Shown here: positions 11,600 to 60,700 of the stretch, piece after piece
How the letters are laid out: every line of letters starts with the position of its first letter
How positions within the stretch are numbered: the first letter of the stretch is position 1
DNA from: Terriglobia bacterium
Lineage (GTDB): Bacteria > Acidobacteriota > Terriglobia > JAIQFV01
Assembly (NCBI GenBank): GCA_020072965.1
Contig: JAIQFY010000011.1
Coordinates: 14,925-78,924 of the forward strand
Direction: 5' to 3'
DNA length: 64,000 nt
Program-made: the position numbers and the translations under genes
Notes under the pieces: model-generated
Seen by the model: the letters and a program-made list of their open reading frames with translations, nothing else
What the model was told of the DNA's origin: nothing
Databases searched by the model: none

Positions 11600-12052
11600 A
11601 TGAGCGTTCAGCGCAGGCAACCCGGACGGCGGTTTCATTTTCATACTTCACTGCAGGTCCGGTTTCGGGATGTCGATGTCAAGGGCCATGTCAACCATGC
11701 CGTATATTTTTCTTATTTTGAAATGGCCCGATGTGAATACTGGATGTCGTTATTTTCATTGGCGCACTTGAGCGACATTGACTTTATCGTGGTGCATGCC
11801 GAATGCAATTATCTCCAGCCGGCCCAATATGCCGAATGGCTGGAAGTTTATGTGGCCGTCACCGGAATCCGGAACTCGAGCTTTGTGATGGAGTATGAGG
11901 CGAGGTCGCGTCGGCCCCGCCGGGTCGTGGCAACGGGCTCGACCATCCAGGTGATTTATGATTACTCCGGGGATCAAACGAAAAGGGTTCCATTGTCGGT
12001 GCGCCGAAAAATCGAGAGGTTTGAGAAGCGCCCGTTGTCGACGGCTCTATAG
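11600..12052 (+). CDS. Acyl-CoA thioesterase, 4HBT/hotdog fold (YbgC-like)
   Basis: VRFRDVDVKGHVNHAVYFSYFEMAR matches the hotdog thioesterase N-terminal catalytic region. Confidence 0.7.
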   Translation: MSVQRRQPGRRFHFHTSLQVRFRDVDVKGHVNHAVYFSYFEMARCEYWMSLFSLAHLSDIDFIVVHAECNYLQPAQYAEWLEVYVAVTGIRNSSFVMEYEARSRRPRRVVATGSTIQVIYDYSGDQTKRVPLSVRRKIERFEKRPLSTAL

Positions 12053-43537: not shown

Positions 43538-44839
43538 ATGCGCCTAGACGTCACACTTAACAATTTCCGCAACCAGCGGGTCATCATCCATGCCAAGCAT
43601 GATTCCATCTCTATTTGTCTGAATCATTTCAACAACAGCCTCAACTTCGACCGTGAAGGGCGGATCATCTCCGTTTTTCTGAATGGCCATACATTCCAAC
43701 GCAGCGAAGACAATCGGTACCTGGTCAAATGGAAGACCGACAAGTTGGGTTCCCCCCTCACGATGCGCAGGTCACTCGAACCGAAGGAAATCCAGGAGTT
43801 TTTCACCAACGCGCGAGAGACAGTTCGTGAGGTCCTCGAGGCATTACAACTGCAGAAAATGAAAGCTCTTATCGAGCAGCATATCCCGGTCAGTGAGGCT
43901 AAAGCGGTACAGGAGTGGATGCAGCGGATCCTCACTTACACCCTGGATCGGTACGCCGAGCGAGCCAGGGAATTTCTTCAAATCTATAAACCCATCAGTA
44001 TCCTGCCGCCAGACCAGTACCGCTCACTGGTGGTCCAGGGGACCGAAGGATGCCACTATAACCAGTGCAGCTTTTGCACTTTCTACAAGGACCGCGAGTT
44101 CCGAATTAAAACGCCAGCGGAGTTCCGAAAACATCTCAAGGACATTCGGAAGTATTACGGCGAATCCCTCCGCCTGCGCCGAACTATCTTTCTCGGTGAC
44201 GCCAACGCCATCGTGACGCCCCAGAAAACCCTCCTGAAGTTTCTCGACGCCATCAATGAGGAGTTCGATATCACCCCGCCCGGGATGGAGAAAGAAGATC
44301 GCACCCTTTGGAAGAAGGCTCATCCCATCCACTTCAACGGGATCGTGTCCTTCATGGATTGCTTCACCTCCAAGCAAAAAACCGTTGATGAGTTCAAGGA
44401 GATGGCAGCTCGAAATCTCAAACGAGTTTATATAGGCGTTGAGACGGGAAGTGATCCGCTCCTGGCCTTCCTTAACAAACCCGGCCGGAGTGAAGAGATT
44501 TGCGAAGCCGTGGACCATGTCAAGAAAGCTGATCTGTCCGTGGGCCTGATTATCATGGTGGGGATTGGAGGAATGAAATTCAATGCGGAGCATATCGAAA
44601 AAACGGTCAAGCTGTTGCGCTCGCTCCCGCTTAGCGAGCACGACCTGATTTACTTTTCGGAGTTTGTCCAGCTCCCGGAAATGCCCTATACGCATAAAGC
44701 CCTGGAAGAGCGAATCCGCCCCCTTTCACCCACACAGATCAAAACCCAAATGACCTTAATGCGCCAACAACTCCGAGCCACCTATCCCGTCCCTCCTGCG
44801 AAGCTCTCGGTCTACGACGTCAGGGATTTCATGTACTGA
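43538..44839 (+). CDS. Radical SAM-like protein with non-canonical CX4CX2C cluster motif
   Basis: GCHYNQCSFCTF; downstream VYIGVETGSDPLL...VGLIIMVGIGG resembles the radical-SAM TIM-barrel. N-terminal approx. 160 aa unassigned. Confidence 0.55.
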   Translation: MRLDVTLNNFRNQRVIIHAKHDSISICLNHFNNSLNFDREGRIISVFLNGHTFQRSEDNRYLVKWKTDKLGSPLTMRRSLEPKEIQEFFTNARETVREVLEALQLQKMKALIEQHIPVSEAKAVQEWMQRILTYTLDRYAERAREFLQIYKPISILPPDQYRSLVVQGTEGCHYNQCSFCTFYKDREFRIKTPAEFRKHLKDIRKYYGESLRLRRTIFLGDANAIVTPQKTLLKFLDAINEEFDITPPGMEKEDRTLWKKAHPIHFNGIVSFMDCFTSKQKTVDEFKEMAARNLKRVYIGVETGSDPLLAFLNKPGRSEEICEAVDHVKKADLSVGLIIMVGIGGMKFNAEHIEKTVKLLRSLPLSEHDLIYFSEFVQLPEMPYTHKALEERIRPLSPTQIKTQMTLMRQQLRATYPVPPAKLSVYDVRDFMY

Positions 44840-45480
44840 TCCGGCCCCCTCTCTCGGTTCCCTCGCGGCTTCAGGTCGTAGATCCAGTCTTTTCTCTCCT
44901 CATGCCTTGTCCCCCTTGCAGGGATTTATTCTTACCCTCGAATTAGTTCCGAGAGAAGGGATTGGCCCCTTTTTGACATGAAGTCTCCGTCTTCTGATTC
45001 AACTTACTGAGAGTTTGCTGAAAATTCCATTTAATTCGACTTTCCAGGAGGAGTCCTCTCTCGACTCATAGGATATGTCCGTCTAGATAGCCAGATCACA
45101 GACAACCTGGCCCATACTCCCCTCCCCCGAGACGCCCGAAGCCCGGTATCCGCATGCTCTCAATGTCTGGGGGATTGAGTTACTCTCACCAATTCCACAG
45201 GTCGCTGTCCGGCTACGAGTAGAAGACGGTGCCTTCCACGGACTCTGCTGCCCCTGGTGCTGCAGCCAGGATCGAGACCTCCAAGAGCAAACCCGGACTC
45301 TTCCTTCCTTTGATTGCCCTTTTGGAACCATCGTGAACTAAATGATCTGAAATAAAAAGTCCGATATTTCCCTGCTAGAGGGCCAAAAAGTCCTTTAAAT
45401 CTCCTCAGCTGGATCGATATCCTGACGTCCCACACAGCCAATTTTCCATCCTCCTTTTGCAACCCTCCGATGAAACATTC

Positions 45481-45497
45481 TGTTGCACTGCAACAGT
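45481..45497. promoter_or_regulatory. 17-nt palindrome CTGTTGCACTGCAACAG (candidate enhancer-binding site)
   Basis: In the 1-kb AT-rich leader upstream of the cytochrome operon, 190 bp upstream of a sigma54-like element. Confidence 0.4.
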
Positions 45498-45670
45498 GGC
45501 ATTCCTCAGCGCCTGGAACAAGAGTTTTAAATTTCATCTAATCTGCTGATTCTAAATACTATGCTAATACAGCCTTTTCTTTGAACTCCAGACTTCATTG
45601 GCGTACGAATTGCTAATCCTATATGTGAATTTTTGCACTAAGATTCACCATTGCCAGCAGTTCGGCGCAA

Positions 45671-45686
45671 TGGCACCCGGAATGCT
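45671..45686 (+). promoter_or_regulatory. Candidate sigma54 (-24/-12) promoter TGGCACCCGGAATGCT
   Basis: Strong -24 TGGCAC. GC of the -12 box lies 12 nt after GG. About 185 bp upstream of the decaheme cytochrome start. Confidence 0.45.
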
Positions 45687-45871
45687 GATGAATCAAACAT
45701 TGAATCTGGGATGTAGCCGCAAATGATTAATGACAACTCCGGTCTAAATTGGATAGAATCTGCCCTTGCTTCCTGCTCGCCTCTTTTAAGGTCAATCACT
45801 CTCGTTGCCATTCCTGGAAACAATTTGCTTCTTTGAGCACACCACCTAGTATGAACTACAAGGAGATTACT

Positions 45872-46873
45872 ATGACCTCATTCACGGGCCCGCTGAAGGC
45901 GATCAAGATGACGCTCATCAGCGGCTTAGTGCTTGTGGGACTTGTGGGCGCCTTTTCCCTTTCCTTCTCGAAGTCGGCCAAGCCCGACAAGGGAAAGACT
46001 CCGCAAGCCACGTCGGCGAATTACAAGGCGGAGGACTATGTTGGGGCTGACACCTGCAAGACCTGCCACGAAGAGATTTACAACAATTTCCAAAAGACGG
46101 GCCACTTCAAACTGACGCGATATGGCAACTGGACGGCCGACAACAAAGGCTGCGAAGCCTGTCACGGACCGGGCAAGGCCCACGTGGATGGAGGCGGTGA
46201 TAAGACCAAGATTCATACGTTCGAGGATCAATCAGCCAAACAGATATCTGAAACGTGTCTCCGTTGCCATGCCGGAAAAGAGGAACACAACAATTTCCGA
46301 CGGGGTGAACACTGGCGGAACGATGTGAGCTGTATCAACTGTCATGCGCCCCATTCGCCAACGGCCACAGATCTTAAAATGTTGGTCCAGAAGGAACCGA
46401 TGCTCTGCATCTCCTGCCACAGCGAGATCAAAGCGCAGTTCAATATGCCTTTCCGTCACAAGGTGATGGAAAACACCACGAAGGGCAACGTGCTGGAAGG
46501 CACCATGAAGTGTACTGATTGCCATAATCCTCATGGCGGGTTTGAACAGAAGCAGGTGAGGCTGGCAACGGGAGGAGATGCCCCCTGCATGAAGTGTCAC
46601 GCCGACAAACAGGGACCCTTTGTATTCGAGCATGCGCCGTTGAGGGAGGAGGGTTGCACGATTTGCCATATCCCGCACGGGTCGAATAATCCAAAACTGC
46701 TGAAGCGCAATGAAGTCCGGATACTCTGCCTGGAATGCCACAGCAATGCGGGCACCGTGGGAGCGCCTGATACTCCGTCGTTCCATAACCAGGCAACAGC
46801 GCGATTCCAGAACTGCACGACCTGCCATGTCAAGATTCACGGCTCGAATCTCGATCGATTCTACTTCCGTTGA
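45872..46873 (+). CDS. Decaheme c-type cytochrome, MtrA/PioA/MtoA-like periplasmic conduit cytochrome
   Basis: 10 CXXCH motifs (CKTCH, CEACH, CLRCH, CINCH, CISCH, CTDCH, CMKCH, CTICH, CLECH, CTTCH). 333 aa. Signal/TM at N-terminus. RBS AAGGAG 7 nt upstream. Confidence 0.8.
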   Translation: MTSFTGPLKAIKMTLISGLVLVGLVGAFSLSFSKSAKPDKGKTPQATSANYKAEDYVGADTCKTCHEEIYNNFQKTGHFKLTRYGNWTADNKGCEACHGPGKAHVDGGGDKTKIHTFEDQSAKQISETCLRCHAGKEEHNNFRRGEHWRNDVSCINCHAPHSPTATDLKMLVQKEPMLCISCHSEIKAQFNMPFRHKVMENTTKGNVLEGTMKCTDCHNPHGGFEQKQVRLATGGDAPCMKCHADKQGPFVFEHAPLREEGCTICHIPHGSNNPKLLKRNEVRILCLECHSNAGTVGAPDTPSFHNQATARFQNCTTCHVKIHGSNLDRFYFR

Positions 46874-46922
46874 CGTGTGAGGGGCCTACACCGCTAACGA
46901 TATTTTTGGAGAAACGCACATC

Positions 46923-48932
46923 ATGAAAAATAAAATCGGATTCACGCTTTTGATCGTGCTGGGGATCGCGATGGGGGCATTGGTGGTCCGTGCACAGTCC
47001 ACTCCCCCCTCCAGCGATACGGTCCTGGGGGGTTATACCGTGACCCAGGATGCCGAGTTGGGGGTGCGGTTTTTGGGCCGAGACGGGAATGAGAATAAAT
47101 ACCGCAGCGATCTGAATTACGGCCGGGGCTTCCGGCTCTTCAACTATGATTTCCTGGCGCGATCGAAGGACGGCCACGGAGGCTTTTTTGATCTATTCCG
47201 TGTGACGGCGCTCGGCTGGGGTGGGGATCCCAACGAGTTTCTGCGCGTGGATGTCGAGAAGAACAAGTGGTACCGTTTTGATGCCACTTTCCGCCAGTTT
47301 GATTATTTCAACAACCTCACCAATCTGGCGCTGAACCAGCACCTCGCCGATAACAGTCGCAAATTCGACGATTTCAATTTGGCGCTCTTCCCTGACAATC
47401 AGCACTTCAAGTTTTACGTCGGTTACACGTTTGACAAGAGCAGTGGGAATGCGACCACGACGTACGATTACCAGCGCGATGAGTTCCCCATCCAGTCTAA
47501 AGTCCGGTCCGTGGCCAATGACTGGCGGGTCGGCTTTGATGCCAAGGTGTGGGTGTTTGACCTTTCCTTTCTCCAGGGATACCGCATTTTTAAGGACGAT
47601 ACTACTTACGTGGTTCCCTCTCTTAATGTGGGAAATAACCCGACGAATACCAGCGTCATTAATTTCTTAACGCGGGATGTGCCGTCGCGCACCCACATGC
47701 CCTTTACCCGTTTCAGTGCCCACACGCTGATCAAGAAGAAGCTGGACTTTACCGGTCGGTTCATTTACTCAACTGGGACCACCACCTATAATTTCGCAGA
47801 GGCCGTGAAGGGGGTCGATGCCTCCAACAACAACATTCTCCTGGATCTTTTCAATGGACCCGGGAGCGCCCGGCGGCCTAACGGCATTGGTGATTTGGGG
47901 GCGAGTTTCTTTGCCACCGACCGTTTGACCATCTCGGAGACCTTCCGAGTAAACACTTTCCGCATTTCGGGCGGGTCGAACGTCTTCGAATCGTTGTTCC
48001 GCACTCGCACGACGGCATTTGGAACAACTACGCTTCCTCCGACTTTCATTTCCTCCCTGATCTTCGAACTGGTCGGATATCGTTTGTTCTCCAATTACAT
48101 TGAGGGGGACTACAAGTTCAGTCCAAAATTCTCCGGACATGTCGGTTATCGATATACGTCGCGGCGGGTGGAGTTGGGTACCTCGATTCAACCGCCTTTG
48201 GGAACGGCGCTCGATACCGACACCCAGTTCAACCACACCAACTCGGTGGTGGTGGGGTTCAAAGCACGCCCCGCTTCCATCTGGACCGTCTATTTTGACT
48301 TTGAGCGTGGCACGGCGGACAACGTGTTCACGCGGCTCTCCAATTACAACTACACCAACTTCCGCGTGCGCACCAGTGTCAAGCCGACAAAGACCCTGAC
48401 ATTTAACGCTTCCCTGGTGACCCGCGACAACAACAACCCCGCCCTCACCCAGGGGGGTCAGAACTTCGGTGTTGATGCCAAGGGGCGGATCTTTAGCGCG
48501 TCAGCGGATTTCAGCCCCAACTCGAAATTTACTTTCACAAGCGGCTATACCTATAACCGCCTTACCTCCGATTCCTCTATCATCTTTTTCCTCGGGGGCA
48601 TCCAGACCACAGGAACCAGCTTGTATTTCCTGAGGGACCATTACTTCTTTTTCAATTCCCACGTCCAGCTCCATCCTCGAGTGGGCCTTTTCTTCGGCTA
48701 TCGCATCGAGAAGGACACCGGCCAGGGAGACCAGGTTGCGAGTTCGCCGAGCCAGTTGATTTCGTCCTATCCGTTGCAGTTCCACTCACCCGAGGTTCGG
48801 TTGACTTTCAAACTGCTTGAGCATCTGGATTGGAATGCCGGGTTCCAGCGGTATGATTACAAGGAGAAATTCCTGAACAACCAAAACTACCGAGCGAATT
48901 TGCCTTACACTTCGCTTCGGCTCTACTTCTGA
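46923..48932 (+). CDS. Outer-membrane beta-barrel protein, MtrB/PioB-like porin partner
   Basis: Signal peptide. 669 aa, rich in alternating aromatic/Gly/Thr/Asn. C-terminal ...SLRLYF. Translationally adjacent to the decaheme gene. Confidence 0.65.
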   Translation: MKNKIGFTLLIVLGIAMGALVVRAQSTPPSSDTVLGGYTVTQDAELGVRFLGRDGNENKYRSDLNYGRGFRLFNYDFLARSKDGHGGFFDLFRVTALGWGGDPNEFLRVDVEKNKWYRFDATFRQFDYFNNLTNLALNQHLADNSRKFDDFNLALFPDNQHFKFYVGYTFDKSSGNATTTYDYQRDEFPIQSKVRSVANDWRVGFDAKVWVFDLSFLQGYRIFKDDTTYVVPSLNVGNNPTNTSVINFLTRDVPSRTHMPFTRFSAHTLIKKKLDFTGRFIYSTGTTTYNFAEAVKGVDASNNNILLDLFNGPGSARRPNGIGDLGASFFATDRLTISETFRVNTFRISGGSNVFESLFRTRTTAFGTTTLPPTFISSLIFELVGYRLFSNYIEGDYKFSPKFSGHVGYRYTSRRVELGTSIQPPLGTALDTDTQFNHTNSVVVGFKARPASIWTVYFDFERGTADNVFTRLSNYNYTNFRVRTSVKPTKTLTFNASLVTRDNNNPALTQGGQNFGVDAKGRIFSASADFSPNSKFTFTSGYTYNRLTSDSSIIFFLGGIQTTGTSLYFLRDHYFFFNSHVQLHPRVGLFFGYRIEKDTGQGDQVASSPSQLISSYPLQFHSPEVRLTFKLLEHLDWNAGFQRYDYKEKFLNNQNYRANLPYTSLRLYF

Positions 48933-49234
48933 GCGATGCCAATTACGCTCGAGGTAAAACCATTGGACCAAGAAGGATTATTCTTATCGATAAACTCTAG
49001 ATGTCGCGCCTGCAACGATCCGTGATACGGACGCGGACACATCGACTTCGGAAGCTGATCGTCCGATATTTTAAACAGCCACTCCTGCAGGGGGCTGCAC
49101 CTTAAGTCAAGGAGGTAGAAAACCATGGCCATGGCAGATTATGACAATGACCCCTAACCTATAGGTTGCCGATTTTTTTCGTCTACATTTGTGAAAGCAT
49201 TCACATGACGTTAACGTCAGAAAGGATCATTTTT

Positions 49235-50194
49235 ATGGTAAAGAAGCTCATATTAGCATTTACGTTCTTACTTGTTCTTGCAAGCCTATCTTTGGCCGCC
49301 AATCCCACTCCGGCACCGCTCAATGTCCCGACCTACAACTATTCGGAGTCGAATGGCTGTCCGAGTTGTCACTTCTCGTCGGGAACGGCAGGCGATCACA
49401 TGATGGAAGCGGTCGGCATGAGTATCGACAAGGGCAACACTGCTTTCACGCTCTCTGGCAGTGGCTGGCGTGCATCCCGGCATGCTCAATCCAACCATGG
49501 GTCCACGCAAAATACCTTCTGTGCAAAATGCCACTCTCCTCTTCAAGCCACACCTCAAGCGACCTTTAACAATGGGTTCCTGGAGAACACGGCGTTGATC
49601 GCTGATGGCCAAATGGAAGGTGTCACCTGTGCGGGGTGCCATCCGCCCCACGCCACCGTTCCTCGCCTTGGGATTTACCATTTCGGTCAGGACAAGACCA
49701 AGGCATCATCGTACACATTGATTCAGGAAGATGAGCAGGACCTGCTTTGCCTCAACTGCCACGTCAACCGACACAACGAGACCAACACTGCCTTTAAGCG
49801 GATGTACGACGCCGGCGTGCAGTGCACGGATTGCCACATGGCTCGCTATGGATTGACCAACAATGGTCAGGGTACAGTCCAAAAGCGCTTCCATGATTTC
49901 AAGGTGGCAGAGAATCTACCGTATTCCTGCGGTGTCGACGGGGCGGTTTCTGGATTCCGGTGCCATCCCGGCTTCAGCACAGAAGCAACTCTCGCCTTCC
50001 TGCCCTTCCTGAAGGAGCAGCACAGCGATTGGTGGCCTCTGACTCAGAGTGCCGGCAAGAGAGGCAATGCGACGGCTACTAGGACCCTGGCAACACCGGC
50101 CGATTATATGGACCTCTGGAAAGAGATCCAGAACGGGACTACCCGGGTGCAGAGCGAAGCGAAACGAGTGGATCGAACTCAAGCTGCCCAGTAA
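49235..50194 (+). CDS. Secreted pentaheme c-type cytochrome
   Basis: Sec signal MVKKLILAFTFLLVLASLSLA. 5 CXXCH motifs (CPSCH, CAKCH, CAGCH, CLNCH, CTDCH). RBS AAAGGA. Confidence 0.8.
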   Translation: MVKKLILAFTFLLVLASLSLAANPTPAPLNVPTYNYSESNGCPSCHFSSGTAGDHMMEAVGMSIDKGNTAFTLSGSGWRASRHAQSNHGSTQNTFCAKCHSPLQATPQATFNNGFLENTALIADGQMEGVTCAGCHPPHATVPRLGIYHFGQDKTKASSYTLIQEDEQDLLCLNCHVNRHNETNTAFKRMYDAGVQCTDCHMARYGLTNNGQGTVQKRFHDFKVAENLPYSCGVDGAVSGFRCHPGFSTEATLAFLPFLKEQHSDWWPLTQSAGKRGNATATRTLATPADYMDLWKEIQNGTTRVQSEAKRVDRTQAAQ

Positions 50195-50238
50195 ACTTTT
50201 GATTCGCTTGACGGTAGCATTCTGAATTCTATTTGTCT

Positions 50239-50299
50239 GGGCCGCGTGGAAATTGAGGGAAGGCGACCCTTCATCATTTCTTTTGCGGCCCTTTTTTAT
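50239..50299 (+). terminator. Rho-independent terminator-like hairpin GGGCCGC...GCGGCCC followed by TTTTTT
   Basis: Outer 7-bp stem plus inner GAAGG-CGAC-CCTTC stem, then a T-run. 45 bp after the pentaheme gene stop. Confidence 0.5.
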
Positions 50300-50372
50300 T
50301 GCAAAAATGTGAATTTATTCACAAGTAAGTCGTGCCATTGATTTCAAACTCAATCATAGGAGGTAGTACTAA

Positions 50373-51161
50373 ATGGACTCATCAAATAGAAGACGTTTTG
50401 TTAAGAACGTGGGTGGAATCGCGATCGGTGCAGTCGCTGGGTCCGGGGTTACCCGGCTCCTTTCTTCGGACGAAGCGCCACTTGCGATTCCGGCTTTGCC
50501 TTGGCCTTATGTGGATTTGGATCCGATTGCAGTAGCCGAGAGAGCGTACCTGGGTTATTCCAACGGTGGGTGCATGTACGGGGCATTCGAGGGAATTATC
50601 GGGGAGTTACGTACCAAGCTGGGAGCACCATTCGATACCTTTCCTACCACCATGATGAAATACGGTGGCGGGGGGGTCGCCGGTTGGGGCAGTCTCTGTG
50701 GAGCGTTGAATGGCGTCGCGGCAGCCATTTATCTTTTGAAGGATTCAAAAACCGGAAATGATCTGATCAGTGAAATCTTTAACTGGTACGGAGTAGAAAA
50801 GCTCCCAAATTACCGACCAAAAACCCCGAAGTTTGAAATTGCAACCACTATTTCGGAGTCCCAGTTGTGTCATGTGTCTGTCACCAAGTGGGCTAATCAC
50901 ACGGGTTTCAAAACGGGCTCTCCCGAGCGCGCTGAAAGATGTGCGTGGCTCACTGCTTCTGTCGCCAAGTACACCACAGAATTGCTGAACAAGCAGCTCG
51001 CCGGGACTTACCAGCGGGCGCACCAAACCCCCGCGAAGGTTACTCTGTGTTTGCAGTGCCATGGACCCAGCGGCACGGTAGCCAATGTCCATATTACCGG
51101 GGGTCAAAGTAACTGCACCTCGTGTCATCATCGACACTGGGCTGGAGGAGTCGAGTTCTGA
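50373..51161 (+). CDS. C_GCAxxG_C_C family redox protein with C-terminal diheme c domain (split-Soret cytochrome-like), Tat signal
   Basis: SNRRRFVKNVG twin-arginine leader. Cys pattern C...CGALNG...C...C. CLQCH and CTSCH at the C-terminus. RBS AGGAGG. Confidence 0.65.
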   Translation: MDSSNRRRFVKNVGGIAIGAVAGSGVTRLLSSDEAPLAIPALPWPYVDLDPIAVAERAYLGYSNGGCMYGAFEGIIGELRTKLGAPFDTFPTTMMKYGGGGVAGWGSLCGALNGVAAAIYLLKDSKTGNDLISEIFNWYGVEKLPNYRPKTPKFEIATTISESQLCHVSVTKWANHTGFKTGSPERAERCAWLTASVAKYTTELLNKQLAGTYQRAHQTPAKVTLCLQCHGPSGTVANVHITGGQSNCTSCHHRHWAGGVEF

Positions 51162-51287
51162 TTCTTCACATGGGTCAGGAAGGATTAAAGAAGGGCGAAG
51201 GATCCCGAACACACTCATAGCAGTAGGGCGGATCCCCTACCTTCTCCCCGATCCTGGCCCGAAACCTCCGGCTTGATCTTCAGGGAT

Positions 51288-51348
51288 GGGCCGCGTTCGA
51301 ATTTGATGGAAGTTACATTCTATCGATTCGATCCGGCCCCTTTTTTCT
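51288..51348 (+). terminator. Terminator-like hairpin GGGCCGC...CGGCCCC followed by TTTTTT
   Basis: Same GGGCCGC/GCGGCCC-Tn architecture as at 50239 and 51831. Confidence 0.45.
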
Positions 51349-51409
51349 CTTCGAATGGTTCTGAATATCGCGCCATGTCAATTGAGGGGTCGCCAACGTA
51401 GTGCCTCTG

Positions 51410-51786
51410 TTGAATCCGTCGATTGCCACATGGCTCCGTATGGACTGACCAACAACGGCCAGGGAACGGTGCGGAAGCGCTTCCATGATTTCAAGGTGGC
51501 CCAGAATCTTCCCTATTCGTGCGGGGTGGATGGGTCTGTGAATGGATTTGTTTGCCACGCGGGATTCAACACAGAATCGGCTCTCGCCTTCCTTCCCTAC
51601 ATGAAGGAGCAGCACAGCGACTGGTGACCGGTAAACTCAAGCACCGGCAAGAGGGCCGCGAGCACAGCCGTGGGTGCGCTGCAGACTCCAGAAGATTACA
51701 TGGCACTCTGGAAGCGAATCCAAGATCGAGGCGGACAACTCCCGCTTAAGCACAAGCAAGTTGACCGGAAAGCGATTCATCTCTAG
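51410..51786 (+). pseudogene. Degenerate 3' fragment of a paralog of the pentaheme cytochrome gene (in-frame TGG TGA stop, first heme Cys lost)
   Basis: SVDCHMAPYGLTNNGQGTVRKRFHDFKVAQNLPYSCGVDGSVNGFVCHAGF...KEQHSDW* aligns with 49835-50194 of the intact gene at about 80% nt identity. TGGTGG has become TGGTGA. Homology continues after the stop and through the terminator. Confidence 0.7.
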
Positions 51787-51830
51787 CAATCATACATAAT
51801 CTACGCACGACATTGGATTTAACCACTTTA

Positions 51831-51888
51831 GGGCCGCATCGGGATGGTAGGCAGGCAAACTGCCGACATCCCCTTGCGGCCCTTTTAC
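51831..51888 (+). terminator. Terminator-like hairpin GGGCCGC..(GGCAG-GCAAA-CTGCC)..GCGGCCC followed by TTTT
   Basis: Duplicated together with the gene fragment. Paralogous to the 50239 terminator. Confidence 0.45.
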
Positions 51889-51934
51889 ATTCAGTCTTAC
51901 CCTCAATCTGCAACGCGCCGCATGTAACAAATCC

Positions 51935-51946
51935 GTTGCATGCAAC
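51935..51946. promoter_or_regulatory. Perfect palindrome GTTGCATGCAAC (second copy)
   Basis: The 14-mer CCGTTGCATGCAAC is identical to the one at 33819-33832. Lies 118 bp upstream of a sigma54-like element. Confidence 0.4.
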
Positions 51947-52052
51947 CGATCATTAAAACTCTAAGAGTACCCAAAATGGGACGAATTGTCCTGATCTTAT
52001 ACAGTCAATGGGACTTAAATTCCAGGTGGACAAATGAATCTTTTCACATGAA

Positions 52053-52068
52053 TGGCAGGGGAAGTGCC
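52053..52068 (+). promoter_or_regulatory. Candidate sigma54 (-24/-12) promoter TGGCAGGGGAAGTGCC
   Basis: GG to GC spacing is 12 nt. About 175 bp upstream of resB. Confidence 0.35.
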
Positions 52069-52228
52069 CTATCCGATTATGGAGAAAGATGCTTAGAAAG
52101 GATTCATGAGGGTGCGACTTTGGTACAAATGGACAGTTCGCGGTTTAGGTGCATTGTCAGCCAGGTTTCTATTCCGAACATGACAGGGAAAAGGACATTC
52201 ACGCTTCACGCGCATTGATCTCTGGCAT

Positions 52229-53887
52229 TTGTCCCAGGGCATGATTGAATTCTCTATGAAATCAAACGGAAAGACACGGATGTCCAACGAAAGTTCGTGG
52301 ATTGAAGGAACAACAACTCAAGCTCCCCAGAAACTCAGTCCTACTGCCGAAAGAGGCGAGGAAAAAGCCGGGCCCGCAAATGGAGGATTTCTTGATGCTT
52401 CCATCCGTTTTCTGAGCACCGTTCGCCTGGGACTCTACCTGTTGATTATCCTCGTTGTCATCTCGTTTATTGGAACGATCATCCCCCAAAAACCGAACAC
52501 CTCTCCTGAAAACCTGCAAAGAATGTTTGCCCCCGCCAACCTCGTGCTGCTGGACCGGATTGGCATCCTCGATATTTTTCACGCCTGGTGGTTCAAGGCG
52601 TTACTGACGCTGCTCGGCCTGAACATCGTCTTCGCATCACTGGACCGCTTCTCACACGCATGGAGATACATCAGGCGCCCGGCGCGATGGCTCACCGAAA
52701 CGGTAATTCGAGCCCAGCACCAGCATGCCGAAATCCACTTCCAGACTTCCCTCGAGGAAACCGAGCGAGCGGTCAAAGGGCGGTTGAGGAAGTGCCTGGG
52801 GCATCCTGAGGAGACCGAAAGGGAGGGACGGAAGGTCATCTTTGCGCAACGGCATGTTTATTCGCGCCTGGCCGCCTATGCAATTCATCTCAGCCTCCTG
52901 GTCATCTTCGCCGGGGGATTGATCGGATTGGAATTGGGCTACAAGGCGCGGGTATCTTTGAGGGAAGGAGAATCCACTTCAAAGGTCATCCTTTTCGATA
53001 CCACGCGGAGTGTCGTGGAGGCCGCAGGGGAACCGAGGTTCCTTGAGAAGGAAATTCCCTTCACGCTTCAACTGGACAAGGCCGAAGTCGTTTTTAACAA
53101 CCCCAAAGACTCCAGCCTTCTCCACCGCGATGACATCCAGAGTCCCGGTGTGGTGAAGAACTGGTACTGCACGATGTCTGTTTGGGAAAATGGGGTCAAG
53201 CAAAGCACCCAGGTGGTGGCGGTGAACCAACCGCTTTCGCACCGGGGATTCCGGTTCTTTCAAAGTGGTTTTGATTTCGGGAACGGACTGAAGGAATTTA
53301 CATTTCAGGTTCGTTTGAAGGGGGCGGGCGGACAATCCTCTGAAGCCGTTTACAAGGTTCGAAAGGGGGACTCCTTCGAGATCAAAGACGCCCACCTGGT
53401 CGCCACGCCGGTGCGGTCGGGAATCATGCCGCAAGCCGATCTGCCCTTTGTATTTCTCAGCCTCCAAAGCAGCGATGGGAAGCCCCCTCTCCAGCTGCCG
53501 GTCTTCGACGAGCCCACGACCCAAAAAATGCGCCAGGGGGCGAACGATGCATCGCCGCTTCCTAAACCTCCTGATGGGATGGAGATTTTTCTGATCGACG
53601 CCACCCCGGAGTTCTCGACGACCCTTCAGGTCTCGCGTGATCCCGGAGTTAACACGGTGTGGGCGGGATGCATTCTCCTGATGTTGGGATTGATGGTGGC
53701 CTTTTACTTTTCGCATCAACGGGTGTGGGCCCTGTTGATTCCCGTTGAGGACGGCACGACGGTCGTCCTTGGCGGTGATTCCAGCAAGAACCGATCTGCT
53801 TTCGCAAGAAAATTTCAGCATCTTGTCGACTTGATGGGGCCACAGGAAGAAGCCTCCCCCGTGAGGCAGGATTTCAAGGAGAAGTAA
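52229..53887 (+). CDS. resB: Cytochrome c biogenesis protein ResB/CcsB (system II)
   Basis: N-terminal TM after FLDASIRFLSTVRLGLYLLIIL. Large periplasmic domain. C-terminal TM. Immediately followed by ccsA. Confidence 0.85.
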   Translation: MSQGMIEFSMKSNGKTRMSNESSWIEGTTTQAPQKLSPTAERGEEKAGPANGGFLDASIRFLSTVRLGLYLLIILVVISFIGTIIPQKPNTSPENLQRMFAPANLVLLDRIGILDIFHAWWFKALLTLLGLNIVFASLDRFSHAWRYIRRPARWLTETVIRAQHQHAEIHFQTSLEETERAVKGRLRKCLGHPEETEREGRKVIFAQRHVYSRLAAYAIHLSLLVIFAGGLIGLELGYKARVSLREGESTSKVILFDTTRSVVEAAGEPRFLEKEIPFTLQLDKAEVVFNNPKDSSLLHRDDIQSPGVVKNWYCTMSVWENGVKQSTQVVAVNQPLSHRGFRFFQSGFDFGNGLKEFTFQVRLKGAGGQSSEAVYKVRKGDSFEIKDAHLVATPVRSGIMPQADLPFVFLSLQSSDGKPPLQLPVFDEPTTQKMRQGANDASPLPKPPDGMEIFLIDATPEFSTTLQVSRDPGVNTVWAGCILLMLGLMVAFYFSHQRVWALLIPVEDGTTVVLGGDSSKNRSAFARKFQHLVDLMGPQEEASPVRQDFKEK

Positions 53888-53890
53888 ATC

Positions 53891-55375
53891 ATGAGTCGTG
53901 TTCATACCGGACCATTGACCGAAGGTGACGGGGCAGCACAGAAGAAGATACTTTGGCCGATGCTCTCCAGTGTTCTTGGGATGGTGCTGCTGGCGTTATT
54001 TGTGATCCCGAACATTCTCAAGAGCGGGGCCGGATTGATGAGTCCGGGAGCCCTGCTCAGTCTGGCCATCATTTTTTACGTCGGCTCCTCGGCCTTGCTG
54101 ATCAGCTATCTGCTGCGGCGCGTGGAGCGTCTCCTCCAGGTGGCCAAAGGGTTGATACTGGTGGGCTTCATCTTTCACACCGGTGCCATCGTCGCCCACT
54201 GGATGGTCGCAGGACGTCCGCCCATTTCAAACATCTTTGAAATGCTGATCAGTTTTGCCTGGGCCCTCATTGCCCTGGATTATGTTTTCCAGCGAATCTA
54301 TAAGCTCAAGATCCTCAGTTCGTTCAGTGTCCCCATCGCCACCCTGGCAGTATTGCTTTCGACTATCCTGCCTGCGGACCCGGAGCGAACACTGCCCCCG
54401 GCACTCCAAAGTGTGTGGCTATACATCCATGTCACCTTTGCGATTTTCAGTTATGTCGCCTGTGCCATTGCGTTTGTGGCTTCAATCCTCTACCTCGTCA
54501 AAGACCGCGTGAAGCTCGAGACTTTCGGAATGATCACACAGGCCCTCACGGTCACGACCATCGCGGGGATTGACTGGCTGGGAAATGCGGACACGGCCCA
54601 CCGGCACTTCAACATCCTGCTGCGGGGTGAGTTCTTCCTCAGCCTCCTCTACAAAGGACGTGAGATTGCCATTCCAGGGATGGAAAAGACTTACCTGGTC
54701 GCGGGACTGCCCTTTGCCGGCAACGCCTTGCGGGTCTCCCTTCTGGTAGCCGTCATCGGACTGGTCCTGTACCTGGCAAAAGCCTCTTCGAAAACTCTGC
54801 TCCGGGTGACCCAGTTGGGATTTCTCGCACAGCTGGCATCAGTGGCCGTCATTCTGGCCGCGACACTCAGTAACTCGACGCAGCAGATGATCGACAGGAT
54901 TCCCGGACAAGTTCTGGGCCAGTTTGACGCGGCGGCCCTGGCGAAGGCGGCCACGGTCAGCATCAAATCCATTCCATTCATCTTTGCGGGACTCCTCGTG
55001 GCGCTGGTCACCACACTGTTATTTCTTATCTTGCACTCCCGGCATGAGGCCATTGTATCTTCGCTCCCCGATGGCAAGCTGCTGGACGAGGTCAATTACA
55101 AGGTCGTCACCATCGCGTTTCCATTACTCACCTTGATGATTGCCACGGGAGCCTTCTGGGCCAATCGCACCTGGGGTTCTTACTGGAACTGGGACCCCAA
55201 GGAAGTGGGGGCTCTGATTACCTGGCTGGTTTATGCAGCCTACCTGCATATGCGCATCGTTCGCGGCTGGGCCGGCCGGCGAGCCGCCTATTTCGCTATC
55301 ATCGGTTTTGTGTTTGTCCTCTTTACGTTCATTGGGATTAGTTATCTGCTCCCGGGCCTCCATGCGTACGCTTGA
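53891..55375 (+). CDS. ccsA: Cytochrome c-type biogenesis protein CcsA/ResC (system II heme lyase), long form (494 aa)
   Basis: Multi-[28 protein letters not shown] is the Trp-rich WWD heme-handling motif. Confidence 0.85.
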
Positions 55376-55488
55376 TCGAGACATCGCACGGTGGAATTCA
55401 CCCCGGGCCTGAGAGCGCATCAAGCTTCATCCTCTTGCAGGATGAGGGTCGTCCGGTTCTTCAAATTACTCATCAAGGAGATGTCCGG

Positions 55489-55594
55489 CATGAAACTCAT
55501 GAAAATGCTGATCTTCATCTTCGCCACCGTAATGCTTTCAATCACCCTGCTGTATGACAAGGCGATACACAAAGAAAGAGGGGAAGCCTTCTAG
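55489..55594 (+). CDS. Possible small hydrophobic peptide (34 aa)
   Basis: MKLMKMLIFIFATVMLSITLLYDKAIHKERGEAF is a single predicted TM helix between ccsA and the CDF gene. Speculative. Confidence 0.2.
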
Positions 55595-55830
55595 CCACTG
55601 CCATCTGAAATACAACAAGACATTGAATGACGTGGGCACGTGTTATGCAAAGAATCACAATCTCTCCGACTGCAAGGCGCCGGAGGCAAAGTAGGCGAAG
55701 GGCATTGGACTGTCGGGCTGCATTGGAAGGCAAGGGCTTGAACGCGATTCGCGCTGGATGGAGCCCGGCGCAACGTGTTCGGGCGGAAATGTTTTTGGGG
55801 AAGGAAATGATCTCCCTGGAGTGAGACAGG

Positions 55831-56718
55831 ATGGACGGGACCAGAGAAAAAAAAGTCGTTGCTCTGACCTCTCTGGTGGCTGCCGTTTTGCTCACCCTGT
55901 TCAAAGCCATCGTGGGAGTGGCGACTGGAAGCCTCGGAATTTTGTCTGAAGCGGCGCACTCCGGACTCGATTCTGCCGCAGCGCTGATGACCTATTTCGC
56001 GGTTTCGATTTCAGCCAAACCTGCCGACGACTCCCACCACTATGGACATGGAAAATTCGAAAGTTTCTCAGCGCTCTTTGAAGTGGTCCTGCTGCTGCTC
56101 ACCTGCTGCTGGATTATCTACAGGGCCGCCTATCGCCTGGCCGGCCACCGCGTGGAGGTGGAAGTCAATGTCTGGAGTTTCGCGGTGATGGGCATTGCCA
56201 TCGTGGTGGACATCACTCGCTCGCAGGCCCTGATGCGGGTGGCCCGGCGTTACGGAAGTCAAGCCCTGGAAGCCGATGCGTTACATTTTCAAAGTGATAT
56301 CTACAGCTCGCTCGTCGTCATCTTCGGACTCATTTTCACCAAGGCGGGCTTCCCGGTCGGCGATCCATTGGCCGCCCTGGGTGTTTCTATCCTCGTCATG
56401 ATCGCCTCTGTCAGGTTGGCGATGCGATCCAGCCAGGTGTTGTTGGATCGTGCCCCCTCGGGGGTCGAGGATCATATTCGCAAGATTCTCACTTCGTTGC
56501 CCCGGGTCCTGGAAGTTCGAAAAATACGGGTGCGCGATGCGGGAACGCAGATGTTTGTCGACGTCACGATTGCGGTCGATGGCCATATGTCACTGGACGA
56601 ATCACACGCGGTGGCAGATGAATCAGAACGCCAGATCGCCGCGGTGATCTCCAATGTGGATGTGACGATCCACGTCGAGCCGGCGACTCAGGCCTTGTTT
56701 CTGAATGAACGACCTTGA
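55831..56718 (+). CDS. Cation diffusion facilitator (CDF) family metal efflux transporter
   Basis: GSLGILSEAAHSGLDSAA, HYGHGKFE and a C-terminal cytoplasmic domain. Length 295 aa. Confidence 0.85.
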   Translation: MDGTREKKVVALTSLVAAVLLTLFKAIVGVATGSLGILSEAAHSGLDSAAALMTYFAVSISAKPADDSHHYGHGKFESFSALFEVVLLLLTCCWIIYRAAYRLAGHRVEVEVNVWSFAVMGIAIVVDITRSQALMRVARRYGSQALEADALHFQSDIYSSLVVIFGLIFTKAGFPVGDPLAALGVSILVMIASVRLAMRSSQVLLDRAPSGVEDHIRKILTSLPRVLEVRKIRVRDAGTQMFVDVTIAVDGHMSLDESHAVADESERQIAAVISNVDVTIHVEPATQALFLNERP

Positions 56719-56815
56719 AATGGTATGGCTGAAGGAGGCTTTCACCCGGTGGCCACTCTTCCGGGTTTATCCCCGCTCAGGAAATCCGGCTACTCTTAGC
56801 CCATTGGATCTGACC

Positions 56816-58840
56816 ATGAAAATTCGTCCCTTACAATTACCGGGTCTGCGATCTGTCCGGTTCATCTTTCCTTTGTTTCTCTTTCTCTTAATGATCTCCT
56901 GTTCCGCGGCCTGGGGAGCAGTCAAGAGCTCTGAATGTCTGAGCTGCCACGCCATGGAGGGGTTCCAGTCTCCCGGTGGAATGAATCTGTATGTCGACCA
57001 AAAGCGATTTGAGAAGAGCGTCCACTCCTTCTTGAATTGCACGGATTGCCACTCTGACGTTTCAAAGACACCGCATGCTTCCCAATTGGCCAAAGTGAAC
57101 TGCGGTACCTGCCACGAGGAACAACAGAAAAAATTCGCGTTGTCGATTCATGCGGGAAAAGTGATTCACAATCCTTCCGACGGGGGAAACGGAAAGAAGG
57201 CGTTCACGTGCGCGGACTGCCATAGCCCTCATACGATTCTGCCGAAGAGCGATCCGGCCGCTGCCACCCATCACACCAACGTGCCCGCCCTTTGCGGCAC
57301 CTGCCATCAGAACCTGCAGTTTGTTATTGAATCGCCCATGGCAGAAACCTCCAAGCCTTTTTTCGCCTACCGGGAAAGCGTCCATGGAAAATCAGTGGCG
57401 GCGGGATCGGAGCGGGCCGCGGTCTGTTCCGACTGCCATAACGCTCACGACATCTTGCCGCCCAACAACCCGAAATCCACGATCTTCAAAACCAACACTC
57501 CCGAAACATGCAGAAGGTGCCACGAAAACATTTACGCCGAGTACAGCGATTCCGTGCATGGAAAAGCGGTGAAGCGGGGGCTTTTCAACGCCCCGGTCTG
57601 CGTGGACTGCCACGGAATCCATTCCATTAAGTCACACATTGATCCGAGGTCGAACGTGGCGGCCCAGGTCATTTCGCGATCCACATGTGGGCAGTGCCAT
57701 TCAGGAGAGAAACTCTCTGCCGAGTACGGCGTCCCCGAGAATCGAGTCTCCTCTTATTTTGCAAGCTATCACGGCCTGGAGAGCCGGGTGGGATCGGTTG
57801 AAACGGCCAATTGCGCCAGTTGTCACGGGGTGCATCACATCCTTCCGTCGGGCGACCCACGGTCCACGGTGAACAAAGCCAACCTCGCACAAACCTGCGG
57901 GCAGTGCCATCCCGGGGCCAGCGAAAATTTTGCCAAGGGTCGCATCCATCTGCTGAAAGGACAAGGGGATGCTATCGGCGGACGGATCATAACGGCTGTC
58001 ACCCAGTTTTACGTTTGGCTGATATTCCTGGTGGTGGGGGGAATGATTATTCACAACGCGATTGATTACTTCGCCCGGGCCCGCCTGCGATTGCGTGAGG
58101 ATTTGCTGCATGGGAAGGCCACCATCGAGCGAATTCACTTGAGCGGCCGTATCCAACACGGAATTATGTTGTCGAGCTTCATCCTGCTGGTCATAACCGG
58201 ATTTGCGCTGAAGTTTCCCGACGCTCAGTGGGTGCATGCCCTGTTCCTCGGAAATGCCGCTGTCCGCGGCGTGGTCCACCGCATCGCCGCTGTAATTTTC
58301 ATCGGCCTCGCCTTCTTCCATCTCTATTTCATCCTCTTCACGAAAAAGGGCCGGCAGGAATTGAAGGCCTGGCTTCCCCGGCTTCAGGATGTCCGGGACA
58401 TGCCCCTGATGATCAGCTATAACCTGGGACTTACAAATGAACACCCCCGATTCGATCGCTTCGGCTATGTGGAGAAGATGGAGTATTGGGCGCTGGTGTG
58501 GGGCACCCTCATCATGGTGGCCACCGGACTGGCGCTGTGGGCGAAAACCTTCGTCCTGTTTTACATCCCAAAATGGGGTCTGGATGTCTTTGAAGTGATT
58601 CACTACTACGAGGCCTGGCTTGCCACGCTTGCCATCATCGTTTGGCATCTCTATATGGTCCTGATGCGACCGGGTTCGTACTCGTCGAGCTGGATGTGGC
58701 TGACCGGAAAGATTACCCGCGAAGAAATGATTGAGGAGCATCCCCTGGAATGGGAACGGATGGAACGCGAATCAAGGTCAGCCGAGAATGCCGAAAAAGA
58801 GGAGGCACAAGAGATCCCTCAACCTGCCCGTTCGACATAA
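56816..58840 (+). CDS. CbcL-like fusion of an 11-heme c-type cytochrome and a dihaem cytochrome b (FdnI/HydC-like) membrane domain
   Basis: Signal/TM, then 11 CXXCH arranged in paired repeats. C-terminal 5-TM region with conserved His (HNAIDYF, HGIMLSS, HRIAAVIF, WHLYMVL). Confidence 0.75.
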   Translation: MKIRPLQLPGLRSVRFIFPLFLFLLMISCSAAWGAVKSSECLSCHAMEGFQSPGGMNLYVDQKRFEKSVHSFLNCTDCHSDVSKTPHASQLAKVNCGTCHEEQQKKFALSIHAGKVIHNPSDGGNGKKAFTCADCHSPHTILPKSDPAAATHHTNVPALCGTCHQNLQFVIESPMAETSKPFFAYRESVHGKSVAAGSERAAVCSDCHNAHDILPPNNPKSTIFKTNTPETCRRCHENIYAEYSDSVHGKAVKRGLFNAPVCVDCHGIHSIKSHIDPRSNVAAQVISRSTCGQCHSGEKLSAEYGVPENRVSSYFASYHGLESRVGSVETANCASCHGVHHILPSGDPRSTVNKANLAQTCGQCHPGASENFAKGRIHLLKGQGDAIGGRIITAVTQFYVWLIFLVVGGMIIHNAIDYFARARLRLREDLLHGKATIERIHLSGRIQHGIMLSSFILLVITGFALKFPDAQWVHALFLGNAAVRGVVHRIAAVIFIGLAFFHLYFILFTKKGRQELKAWLPRLQDVRDMPLMISYNLGLTNEHPRFDRFGYVEKMEYWALVWGTLIMVATGLALWAKTFVLFYIPKWGLDVFEVIHYYEAWLATLAIIVWHLYMVLMRPGSYSSSWMWLTGKITREEMIEEHPLEWERMERESRSAENAEKEEAQEIPQPARST

Positions 58841-58909
58841 CCCCGACGGATGGGGGCGGCGGGCCTCTGTGTTTTTTCGGCCCGGAGCTACGAGCCTTCA
58901 AGAAAAACT

Positions 58910-60700
58910 ATGCAATCCCGGAAGCGACAACGACAAAGCATGCTGGTGCTGGTGATCTTTCTGCTCGCAGTCTTTCTCGTCGTGTCTTATCGATTCTACA
59001 AGGAAACCGAAATCAAGGTGGTGGCACAGTCCGGCGTTCAACAATGGTTGATTGCAGAAACGGCCGCGGCGGGAGTGGAAGGGTACTTTGACACCATTTA
59101 CAAGCGCCTGGAAAAGGAATCCACGACCCTCGCCGCCCGCCCTGCGAACCAGCCCATTGCAGACCATTCACTCGACGCACTCTATCTCGATTTGTCGTAC
59201 CGGATTGCAGGGGTCTACCTGCTGAACGACAAATTTCAGATCGAGGTCTTTCGATCCAACGATCCCCAACTACGTAGTTATCTGCCGCAGATCACGGGAC
59301 CCTTGATGACCGCCCTTCTGCGCGGAGAACATGTGGTAGGCTCTCCGGTCGCCATCAGTAACTATGAATACATCTTCGAGATCCTCGAACCGGTGCTCGA
59401 TTCGGGGGGGCACTTGAAGATGGCCCTCGGCGCCGCGGTTCCCCTCCGGAATTTGAGCTCTCTCTATCTCGACCCGTTGAATTCCACCAAGACCCATTAC
59501 GCGTGGATGCTGGATCAGAAAGGGATGCTTCTCTACAATCCACGTCACGCCGAGATGCTGGGACACCAGATTCTCCAAAACCGCCAGGAGTGTTTTTCCT
59601 GCCACCTTAATTTCGAGACGGAAGAACGTATGGTGCGCGGGGATACGGGGACGGCGACCATCGAATTCAGGAACAAGGACCGGGACCTGGTCGCCTTTAC
59701 ACCCATCCGCATGGGTAATCAGCATTGGTCGCTCGCCGTTTCGATCCCCTATACCGAGGCCACCGCACTCACCCGTGACAGTTTTCGCAACACTCTCCTC
59801 CTGGTGGCCTTCTTCTTCTCGATCATTATTGGCGGGGCGGTGCTGGTCATGAACATGCACGCCCGCAGCATCAAGGCCGAAGAGGAGGCGCGGTTCACAA
59901 GACGGCAGGCGCAACTCGAGCGTCAATTGCTGCAGTCAGAACAACTGGCGGGCATCGGCCGTATGACCTCGCAGATTGCCCATCAAATCAAGACGCCGCT
60001 CTCGGCCATCTCGTTGAACATTGAGTATCTCGAAAAAGAAGTCCGAAAGCGCCTCCTTTCCAGTGGCGTCCCGATGGGTGATGCTTCGCTGGAAGACATC
60101 GAGAATGTCACGGCTTCAGTCACCAGCGAGATTCAGCGTCTGGCCGCTTTGATCGAAGACTATTTGAAATTTGCGCGCCTTCCTAAACCCGTCTTTCATC
60201 CGGGTTCACTGACCGAAATGTTGGAAAGCCAGGCGGCGTTTTTGGAAAAGGAAATGGGAGACCGTCACATTCAGTTGAAGGTAGACGCTGCGCCTGCGGG
60301 AAGCGGTGAGGCCGGCGGCCCCGATAAGATTCTGATGGATGAAAACCTGATCTGGCAGGCCGTTACCAATCTCATCCGCAACTCGGCCGAGGCAATGCCC
60401 TCAGGCGGTACGATCACACTGCGCGTAAGATGCGCCGACAATGACGTCGAATTCAAAGTCTCGGACGAAGGGACCGGAATCCCCGAAGACAAGCTCCCCC
60501 ACATCTTTGAACCCTTCTTCACGACCAAGCCTGACGGAACCGGATTGGGACTCTCTTATGTCCACCGGGTCGTCACCGAACATCACGCTTTCATCGCCTG
60601 CCAGAGCCGCATGGGCGTGGGAACATCATTCACGATTAACTTTCCCCGGTGGACAGACCAATCCCTGGAAGATGGAGCCTATGTTGATGCTAAATCGTGA
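58910..60700 (+). CDS. Sensor histidine kinase with periplasmic sensor domain containing a CXXCH heme-binding motif
   Basis: Two TM helices flank an approx. 280-aa periplasmic domain containing CFSCH. H-box IAHQIKTPLSAIS. HATPase_c N/G boxes (IRNSAEAM, DEGTGIP, GLGLSY). Confidence 0.8.
   Translation: MQSRKRQRQSMLVLVIFLLAVFLVVSYRFYKETEIKVVAQSGVQQWLIAETAAAGVEGYFDTIYKRLEKESTTLAARPANQPIADHSLDALYLDLSYRIAGVYLLNDKFQIEVFRSNDPQLRSYLPQITGPLMTALLRGEHVVGSPVAISNYEYIFEILEPVLDSGGHLKMALGAAVPLRNLSSLYLDPLNSTKTHYAWMLDQKGMLLYNPRHAEMLGHQILQNRQECFSCHLNFETEERMVRGDTGTATIEFRNKDRDLVAFTPIRMGNQHWSLAVSIPYTEATALTRDSFRNTLLLVAFFFSIIIGGAVLVMNMHARSIKAEEEARFTRRQAQLERQLLQSEQLAGIGRMTSQIAHQIKTPLSAISLNIEYLEKEVRKRLLSSGVPMGDASLEDIENVTASVTSEIQRLAALIEDYLKFARLPKPVFHPGSLTEMLESQAAFLEKEMGDRHIQLKVDAAPAGSGEAGGPDKILMDENLIWQAVTNLIRNSAEAMPSGGTITLRVRCADNDVEFKVSDEGTGIPEDKLPHIFEPFFTTKPDGTGLGLSYVHRVVTEHHAFIACQSRMGVGTSFTINFPRWTDQSLEDGAYVDAKS

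Follow-up and report, generated by a model that had tools for sequence, protein, structure and literature searches.

The window analysed here is a 64,000-nucleotide stretch from a Terriglobia bacterium (NCBI GenBank assembly GCA_020072965.1, contig JAIQFY010000011.1, positions 14,925 to 78,924), and its forward strand carries an island of multiheme cytochrome genes that includes ssc, the gene for a 262-aa protein in the family named split-Soret cytochrome c (Ssc). As a first-pass annotation made from the sequence had described, ssc lies between a pentaheme cytochrome gene and the resB-ccsA genes for cytochrome c biogenesis; both reading frames are present at the coordinates given there. The features on which the argument turns are the following, in window coordinates:

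50373..51161 (+): ssc, 262-aa split-Soret cytochrome c family protein, recognised from profile, PDB, fold and alignment matches

50358..50363 (+): Shine-Dalgarno AGGAGG, 9 nt before the ssc ATG at 50373

45872..46873 (+): decaheme MtrA/DmsE-like periplasmic cytochrome with 10 CXXCH motifs (TIGR03508, 252 bits against a cut-off of 192)

46923..48932 (+): putative 669-aa outer-membrane porin, from its signal peptide and its position in the triad described below

49235..50194 (+): 319-aa Sec-exported pentaheme c-type cytochrome, third gene of the triad, from its five CXXCH, leader and synteny

52280..53887 (+): ResB (CcsB) of system II cytochrome c biogenesis, in the public 535-aa call (PF05140, 264 bits)

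53891..55375 (+): CcsA (ResC), the heme-handling subunit of system II (TIGR03144, 240 bits; PF01578)

A phmmer search of the PDB aligned residues 41-253 of the protein with chain residues 16-234 of 1H21, the split-Soret cytochrome c of D. desulfuricans ATCC 27774 and its sole solved relative, at E 2e-39 (~45% identity over 213 residues). The NF047622 profile, 'split-Soret cytochrome c', matched residues 5-253 over profile positions 2-262 of 275 at E 1e-56. These two values put homology far beyond chance, and it is near certain that the protein is a true member of the split-Soret family and not merely 'split-Soret-like', as the first-pass annotation had worded it. The NF047622 score of 192 bits falls below the equivalog cut-off of 400 bits, so that we are dealing with a family member rather than an orthologue of the Desulfovibrio protein. 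Membership of the broader C_GCAxxG_C_C family, also proposed in the first pass, holds with PF09719 (36.1 bits, threshold 27) and fails with the narrower TIGR01909 (22.7 bits, cut-off 47.4). The public record for the gene (NCBI MBZ5535946.1) says only 'C-GCAxxG-C-C family protein'.

The N-terminus of the protein reads MDSSNRRRFVKNVGGIAIGAVAGSGV, and the chain is laid out as a leader (residues ~1-26), an all-alpha C_GCAxxG_C_C domain and a C-terminal diheme tail (C226xxCH, C248xxCH). There are eight Cys in all: C67, C109 (within LCGALNG), C166, C190 and those of the two heme motifs, CLQCH-226 and CTSCH-248. Every one of them, the four non-heme Cys and both CXXCH, is matched in the alignment with 1H21, where the heme motifs read CGECH and CTPCH; the Cys pattern and paired C-terminal heme sites noted in the first pass are thus present and aligned with those of the solved protein. 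Invariant across 22 diverse homologues, drawn from several phyla and one archaeon, are C67, C109, C166, H167, C190, both CXXCH and H255. An AlphaFold model made from 22 homologues has a mean pLDDT of 76.7, with block means mostly above 90 in the core (blocks over 41-90 and 111-210) and a low-confidence loop at 99-106. Searched with this model, Foldseek returned 1H21_A as the only PDB match at E <= 0.001 (E 6.7e-13, TM 0.68/0.73), the same fold. The likeness to the D. desulfuricans protein extends to the four non-heme Cys, the two C-terminal CXXCH and a leader-bearing precursor, Ddes_2150 being termed 'the precursor' (PMC5701242), whereas the host here is an acidobacterium. The N-terminal domain, with its C...CGAxxG...C...C pattern, resembles the stand-alone C_GCAxxG_C_C proteins (PF09719/TIGR01909), to which the window protein adds a twin-arginine (Tat) leader and the diheme tail.

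The start of ssc at 50373 is secure, because AGGAGG stands 9 nt upstream, the next Met is residue 68, within the conserved mature domain, and the leader sequence is kept in relatives; a later, Sec-type start, raised as a possibility in the first pass, is thereby excluded. Residues 4-11, S-N-R-R-R-F-V-K, lead into a Gly/Ala-rich and weakly hydrophobic h-region (Kyte-Doolittle mean 1.38), far less hydrophobic than that of the Sec-type leader on the neighbouring pentaheme cytochrome (2.59). The arginine pair is conserved at 90% or more in the 22-sequence alignment, and 105 of 120 database homologues have the pattern RR-x-hydrophobic-hydrophobic in the leader, so the twin-arginine leader that the first pass had read on this c-type cytochrome appears to be a family-wide trait, not peculiar to the window gene. 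Judging from the 1H21 chain, which starts about 25 residues ahead of the aligned region, the mature N-terminus would lie near residue 26, right after the h-region. A lipobox-like Cys follows the twin-arginine leader in 42 of the 120 homologues (P0001-P0120), which are probably Tat-exported lipoproteins; the window Ssc has no such Cys.

The genes upstream of ssc belong to a unit that is more widely conserved than their association with ssc itself. About 20 related metagenome loci reach far enough upstream to show the gene order, and in all of them it is decaheme, ~670-aa putative porin, pentaheme; the conserved unit is a three-gene porin-cytochrome triad of Acidobacteria. The decaheme start given here is that of the 333-aa protein in the public annotation, with a further possible ATG at 45851. 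The putative porin has a signal peptide and ends in ...LRLYF, with a C-terminal Phe, and had no Pfam or other family match. The pentaheme protein begins MVKKLILAFTFLLVLASLSLA.ANPTP, a hydrophobic Sec-type leader with no lipobox Cys, and contains exactly five CXXCH, at residues 42, 96, 132, 172 and 197, in agreement with its earlier description as a Sec-exported pentaheme cytochrome. All 195 homologues found are from Acidobacteria (Terriglobia, Blastocatellia), and they conserve the five CXXCH and five further His; the NCBI label of the gene is 'hypothetical protein'. A PDB sequence search gave weak NrfA-like heme-motif matches only, and the AlphaFold model of the protein (alignment A2) was too poor for use, with a mean pLDDT of 45.5. 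The triad resembles MtrCAB, PioAB and the Geobacter porin-cytochrome complexes in its decaheme protein, which passes the DmsE/MtrA family threshold, and in the large protein, putatively a porin, and the further cytochrome encoded after it. Unlike them, its porin has no Pfam family, and its third cytochrome has five hemes and no lipobox and belongs to an Acidobacteria-only family. In L089, one of the related loci (which we denote by L numbers), the decaheme match falls into two adjoining pieces (2964-3353 and 3356-3937 of 2964-3937), which suggests a frameshift or an assembly error of that metagenome contig.

The space between the third triad gene and resB-ccsA is, in this Terriglobia lineage, a variable accessory-cytochrome slot, since it holds ssc in the window, extra pentaheme paralogues in L143 and nothing in L089. 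The closest syntenic relative of the window, L143/L144, has decaheme, porin, pentaheme and CcsA proteins that are 88, 87, 82 and 86% identical to those of the window. At its positions 8001-11631 it carries three tandem pentaheme paralogues (319, 344 and 327 aa) before resB, with no ssc among them. In blastn alignments, window positions 50135-51408, with ssc, replace L143 positions 8901-11253, a stretch with paralogue 2 plus the first two thirds (5' part) of paralogue 3. What is left of the latter is recognisable downstream of ssc:

51391..51786 (+): remnant of another pentaheme paralogue, now a pseudogene reduced to its C-terminal third; identity to L143 paralogue 3 (P0124) is 74%

The remnant starts at the fifth CXXCH and contains an in-frame TGA (51625-51627) where relatives have Trp. 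In L089 the slot is empty, with no gene before resB.

An ssc gene follows the pentaheme gene in one Terriglobia subclade only, comprising the window and a 95% sister, L003/L004 and L146; the contig of a further locus, L147, begins at ssc. Relative to the window, L146 shows identities of 72% for the decaheme protein, 66% for the porin, 70% for the pentaheme protein, 68% for Ssc and 68% for ResB, while those in L003 are 69, 58, 66 and 68% for the first four of these in the same order, and those in L147 are 74% for Ssc, 70% for ResB and 79% for CcsA. Ssc (68-74% identity) has thus diverged in parallel with the decaheme, porin, pentaheme, ResB and CcsA proteins (58-79%), which fits a long co-residence of ssc with the island genes in this subclade.

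The intergenic DNA around the slot contains a set of palindromes and a hairpin:

49190..49205 (+): exact palindrome TGTGAAAGCATTCACA, of the CRP/HcpR1 type TGTGA-N6-TCACA, 45 bp upstream of the pentaheme ATG

49206..49219 (+): another perfect palindrome, TGACGTTAACGTCA, which adjoins the first on its downstream side and closely precedes the Shine-Dalgarno

50238..50300 (+): terminator-like GC-rich hairpin with a T-run, after the pentaheme gene (-32.4 kcal/mol, z -2.7)

50308..50323 (+): exact palindrome TGTGAATTTATTCACA, with the ssc ATG 65 bp downstream

45624..45639 (+): weak copy of the palindrome with 2 mismatches, ~240 bp upstream of the decaheme gene

52033..52048 (+): weak copy with 2 mismatches, in a conserved region upstream of resB

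The exact form TGTGAA-N4-TTCACA occurs twice in the 64 kb, against 0 copies expected from shuffled sequence. Upstream of each pentaheme paralogue in L143, L089, L146 and L003 the palindrome has been kept, and it stands at the same place upstream of ssc in L003 and L147, with 1 mismatch in each. Among the copies the half-sites are invariant while the spacer varies, which favours a protein-binding DNA site, putatively of the CRP/FNR type; both E. coli CRP and Desulfovibrio HcpR1 have TGTGA-N6-TCACA as their site (PMC5701242). The TGACGTTAACGTCA palindrome, by comparison, is kept upstream of pentaheme paralogues only (L143, L089, L146) and is absent upstream of ssc. Because each gene has its own palindrome and the hairpin lies between them, the arrangement suggests that the pentaheme gene and ssc are separate transcription units of one regulon. 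No gene for a CRP/FNR-family regulator was present among 30 further window ORFs, a scan that did not take in every ORF, and an Rfam scan of 44800-56800 found no RNA family. We discount as chance an exact TGTGA-N6-TCACA at 8046, which lies inside an MFS transporter gene and does not have the extended motif. In L089 an orphan copy with 1 mismatch (7337-7352) stands after the pentaheme gene, with no gene before resB, and may be a relic of a lost slot gene.

Directly downstream of ssc the island continues with CcsBA and with cytochrome b/multiheme fusions, a context that we count in favour of a role as an electron carrier. Beyond resB-ccsA and a cation-efflux gene is the following reading frame:

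56705..58840 (+): 711-aa fusion of an 11-CXXCH multiheme domain and a cytochrome b561 (Ni_hydr_CYTB) membrane domain, from domain matches and motif count

Its architecture is CbcL-like, and it is a candidate for the inner-membrane quinol oxidoreductase of the island. Then come, within 56705-63630 and on the same strand, a histidine kinase with a Cache domain, a cytochrome with 9 CXXCH, a separate cytochrome b561 and a second cytochrome with 9 CXXCH. We saw no gene for a small tri- or tetraheme periplasmic carrier in the island.

These observations can be drawn together in a model for the maturation and role of Ssc. The 1H21 protein is a homodimer with four stacked, low-potential bis-His hemes, which give it a split Soret band. 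Reportedly, the Desulfovibrio protein also holds a [2Fe-2S] centre, said to have been described by Abreu and colleagues in 2003 under a title beginning 'A novel iron centre'. By analogy, an iron centre would be inserted into the window protein in the cytoplasm and the folded N-terminal domain would cross the membrane by Tat; such cytoplasmic insertion is a plausible explanation for Tat export. The C-terminal tail of ~45 residues, still unstructured at that point, would then receive its two hemes in the periplasm from CcsBA, with H167, beside the putative cluster ligand C166, and H255 as the likely distal heme ligands. Dimerisation, as in the Desulfovibrio protein, would give a stacked four-heme, low-potential carrier. 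This soluble periplasmic carrier, which would share its regulator with the pentaheme cytochromes, could connect the decaheme-porin conduit with the cytochrome b/multiheme quinol oxidoreductases of the inner membrane, and would be an accessory, exchangeable part rather than an obligate partner of the pentaheme cytochrome. We put the probability of this explanation as a whole, from the identity of the protein and its slot through the Tat and heme route to periplasmic electron transfer, at about 55%. Its element that Ssc serves as a periplasmic low-potential electron carrier is, on its own, a tentative proposal to which we give rather less than an even chance.

There is precedent for carriers of the kind proposed near porin-cytochrome genes. 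PioC, a Tat-exported HiPIP encoded with pioAB, MtoD, encoded with mtoAB, PpcA and STC/CctA are all periplasmic. Ssc resembles them in being a redox protein of small size, soluble, with its gene next to a decaheme-porin module, and it would share with PioC the character of an iron-sulfur protein exported by Tat. It differs from all of them in having no sequence relationship to any and in combining a putative iron centre with c hemes in one polypeptide.

A more specific version of the model, in which Ssc is a dedicated periplasmic iron-centre/heme shuttle of the porin-cytochrome conduit, interchangeable in function with extra pentaheme paralogues and under the same CRP/FNR-type regulator, we regard as possible though doubtful. 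Several observations weigh against the model as a whole. None of 54 related metagenome pentaheme loci has ssc, many of them being too short downstream to inform. Those without it include the two closest syntenic relatives, L143/L144 and L089; the triad must therefore work without ssc in these and other pentaheme loci. Among 80 species loci, Ssc has no conserved neighbour, neighbour clustering giving groups of only 3-4 loci, and multiheme cytochromes are rarely near it. The proposed regulation is affected as well: there is no recognisable palindrome upstream of ssc in L146, and the first palindrome leaves a gap of only ~30 nt to the pentaheme ATG, so that the site may be an activating or a repressing one. 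As to the export route, the TAT_signal profile TIGR01409 scores 13.5 bits on Ssc, just under its cut-off of 16.7. Finally, in D. alaskensis G20 the mutation of ssc had no effect on fitness (10.1101/005694).

One alternative is that ssc is a passenger, a true split-Soret gene whose position in a recombination-prone slot is accidental and whose product performs a general periplasmic redox task unrelated to the conduit. In 80 species, spread over many phyla, the gene stands as an orphan, and the slot has evidently turned over, with ssc now in place of paralogue 2 and two thirds of paralogue 3 and a pseudogene stub left behind. The absence of ssc from the 54 pentaheme loci and the terminator-like hairpin that parts it from the pentaheme gene point the same way. 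However, at least four lineages have retained ssc in this slot, where it has diverged in step with the flanking island genes, and it has its own copy of an operator-like palindrome that is otherwise found upstream of pentaheme paralogues. Accidental residence is an unlikely explanation, though one to be taken seriously.

The first-pass annotation had gone further in the opposite direction and proposed that the pentaheme cytochrome and Ssc form a specific two-protein arm, soluble or extracellular, of the pathway. The pairing survives as adjacency in the one Terriglobia subclade (the genes are neighbours in the window, L003 and L146, and the palindrome is common to both in the window and L003), but not as a general association, in view of the 54 pentaheme loci and the 80 species surveyed. 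The hairpin and the separate operator-like sites indicate distinct transcription units, neither family depends on the other, and the tandem expansion of pentaheme paralogues is not mirrored by ssc. Nor does the window Ssc carry a lipobox or other sign of a surface location, and Desulfovibrio homologues are described as periplasmic (10.1101/005694; PMC5701242). We consider an arm built specifically from these two proteins improbable and do not retain that part of the earlier proposal.

An equally improbable alternative is that Ssc is an enzyme, its four-Cys site being a catalytic redox centre for some small substrate in the periplasm, perhaps a nitrogen oxide or a metal(loid), with the two hemes feeding in electrons. 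The stacked, low-potential bis-His hemes of the 1H21 protein instead suggest electron transfer, and the window island contains no substrate-related gene. Pfam words its description of the PF09719 family as 'putative redox-active protein', which would suit an enzyme, as would the reported higher expression of D. desulfuricans ssc on nitrate and its repression by NO (PMC5701242). Some homologues lie beside genes that may hint at a substrate, namely ArsM-like methyltransferase (L039, L059, L076, L082), ArsR-like (L029, L059, L082) or CsoR/RcnR-like genes (L009, L015, L023), but each of these groups amounts to only 3-4 of the 80 loci.

That Ssc instead assists ResB-CcsA, for example as reductant for the CXXCH thiols of apocytochromes, is scarcely credible: ssc directly precedes resB-ccsA in the window, L146 and L147, but it does not adjoin resB in L003, L143 and L089 have resB-ccsA without ssc, and CcsA is nearby in almost none of the 80 species loci.

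To our knowledge, split-Soret cytochrome c has a solved structure and has had no known function since its isolation in the 1980s. The identification of the 262-aa protein adds an acidobacterial member to a known, structurally characterised family; it is fairly ordinary in itself and overturns nothing in current knowledge, and the interest of its context is modest. What is new is the occurrence of ssc in a porin-cytochrome island, whereas most homologues are orphans, together with its exchange with pentaheme paralogues and the operator-like site that it shares with them, all of which is circumstantial and confined to a small clade. This placement nevertheless gives a concrete hypothesis for a role of Ssc in extracellular electron transfer by soil Acidobacteria, and points to a link that Ssc may form in the periplasm when Acidobacteria respire or oxidise metals. 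If Ssc should prove to be a dedicated shuttle of the conduit, this would be the first physiological role for the split-Soret family and would present a natural Tat substrate that acquires covalent heme only after export. The combination of a family-wide Tat leader with C-terminal c-heme sites would in addition make these proteins a handy natural model for Tat export and periplasmic heme ligation in one polypeptide.

The family at large is widespread. An exhaustive phmmer search of 1.84 billion representatives found 672 relatives at E <= 1e-3, of which 460 at E <= 1e-10 and 156 at E <= 1e-30, and a scan of one genome per species found homologues in 218 species, from Chloroflexota, Terriglobia, Methylomirabilota, Desulfobacterota, Verrucomicrobiota, Planctomycetota, Bacillota and Bathyarchaeota, among others. 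All 120 database homologues have exactly two CXXCH. Selenocysteine variants were absent from the loci examined, the 15 suspected of having one all carrying intact Cys-containing genes. A second porin-cytochrome cluster suspected on the minus strand of the window at 20-25 kb (ORFs of 319, 685 and 324 aa) was likewise set aside, its reading frames matching a GNAT acetyltransferase, an S9 peptidase and a ROK kinase in Pfam. In L003/L004 a gene of the MamS/MamX family (magnetochrome-like) follows ssc at 8984-9442, in place of resB, and a second MtrB_PioB porin with its cytochrome lies divergently upstream (1-2124). Three Bacillota loci, including those of Desulfitobacterium and Desulfosporosinus (L051, L073, L080), carry tandem pairs of paralogous diheme ssc genes.

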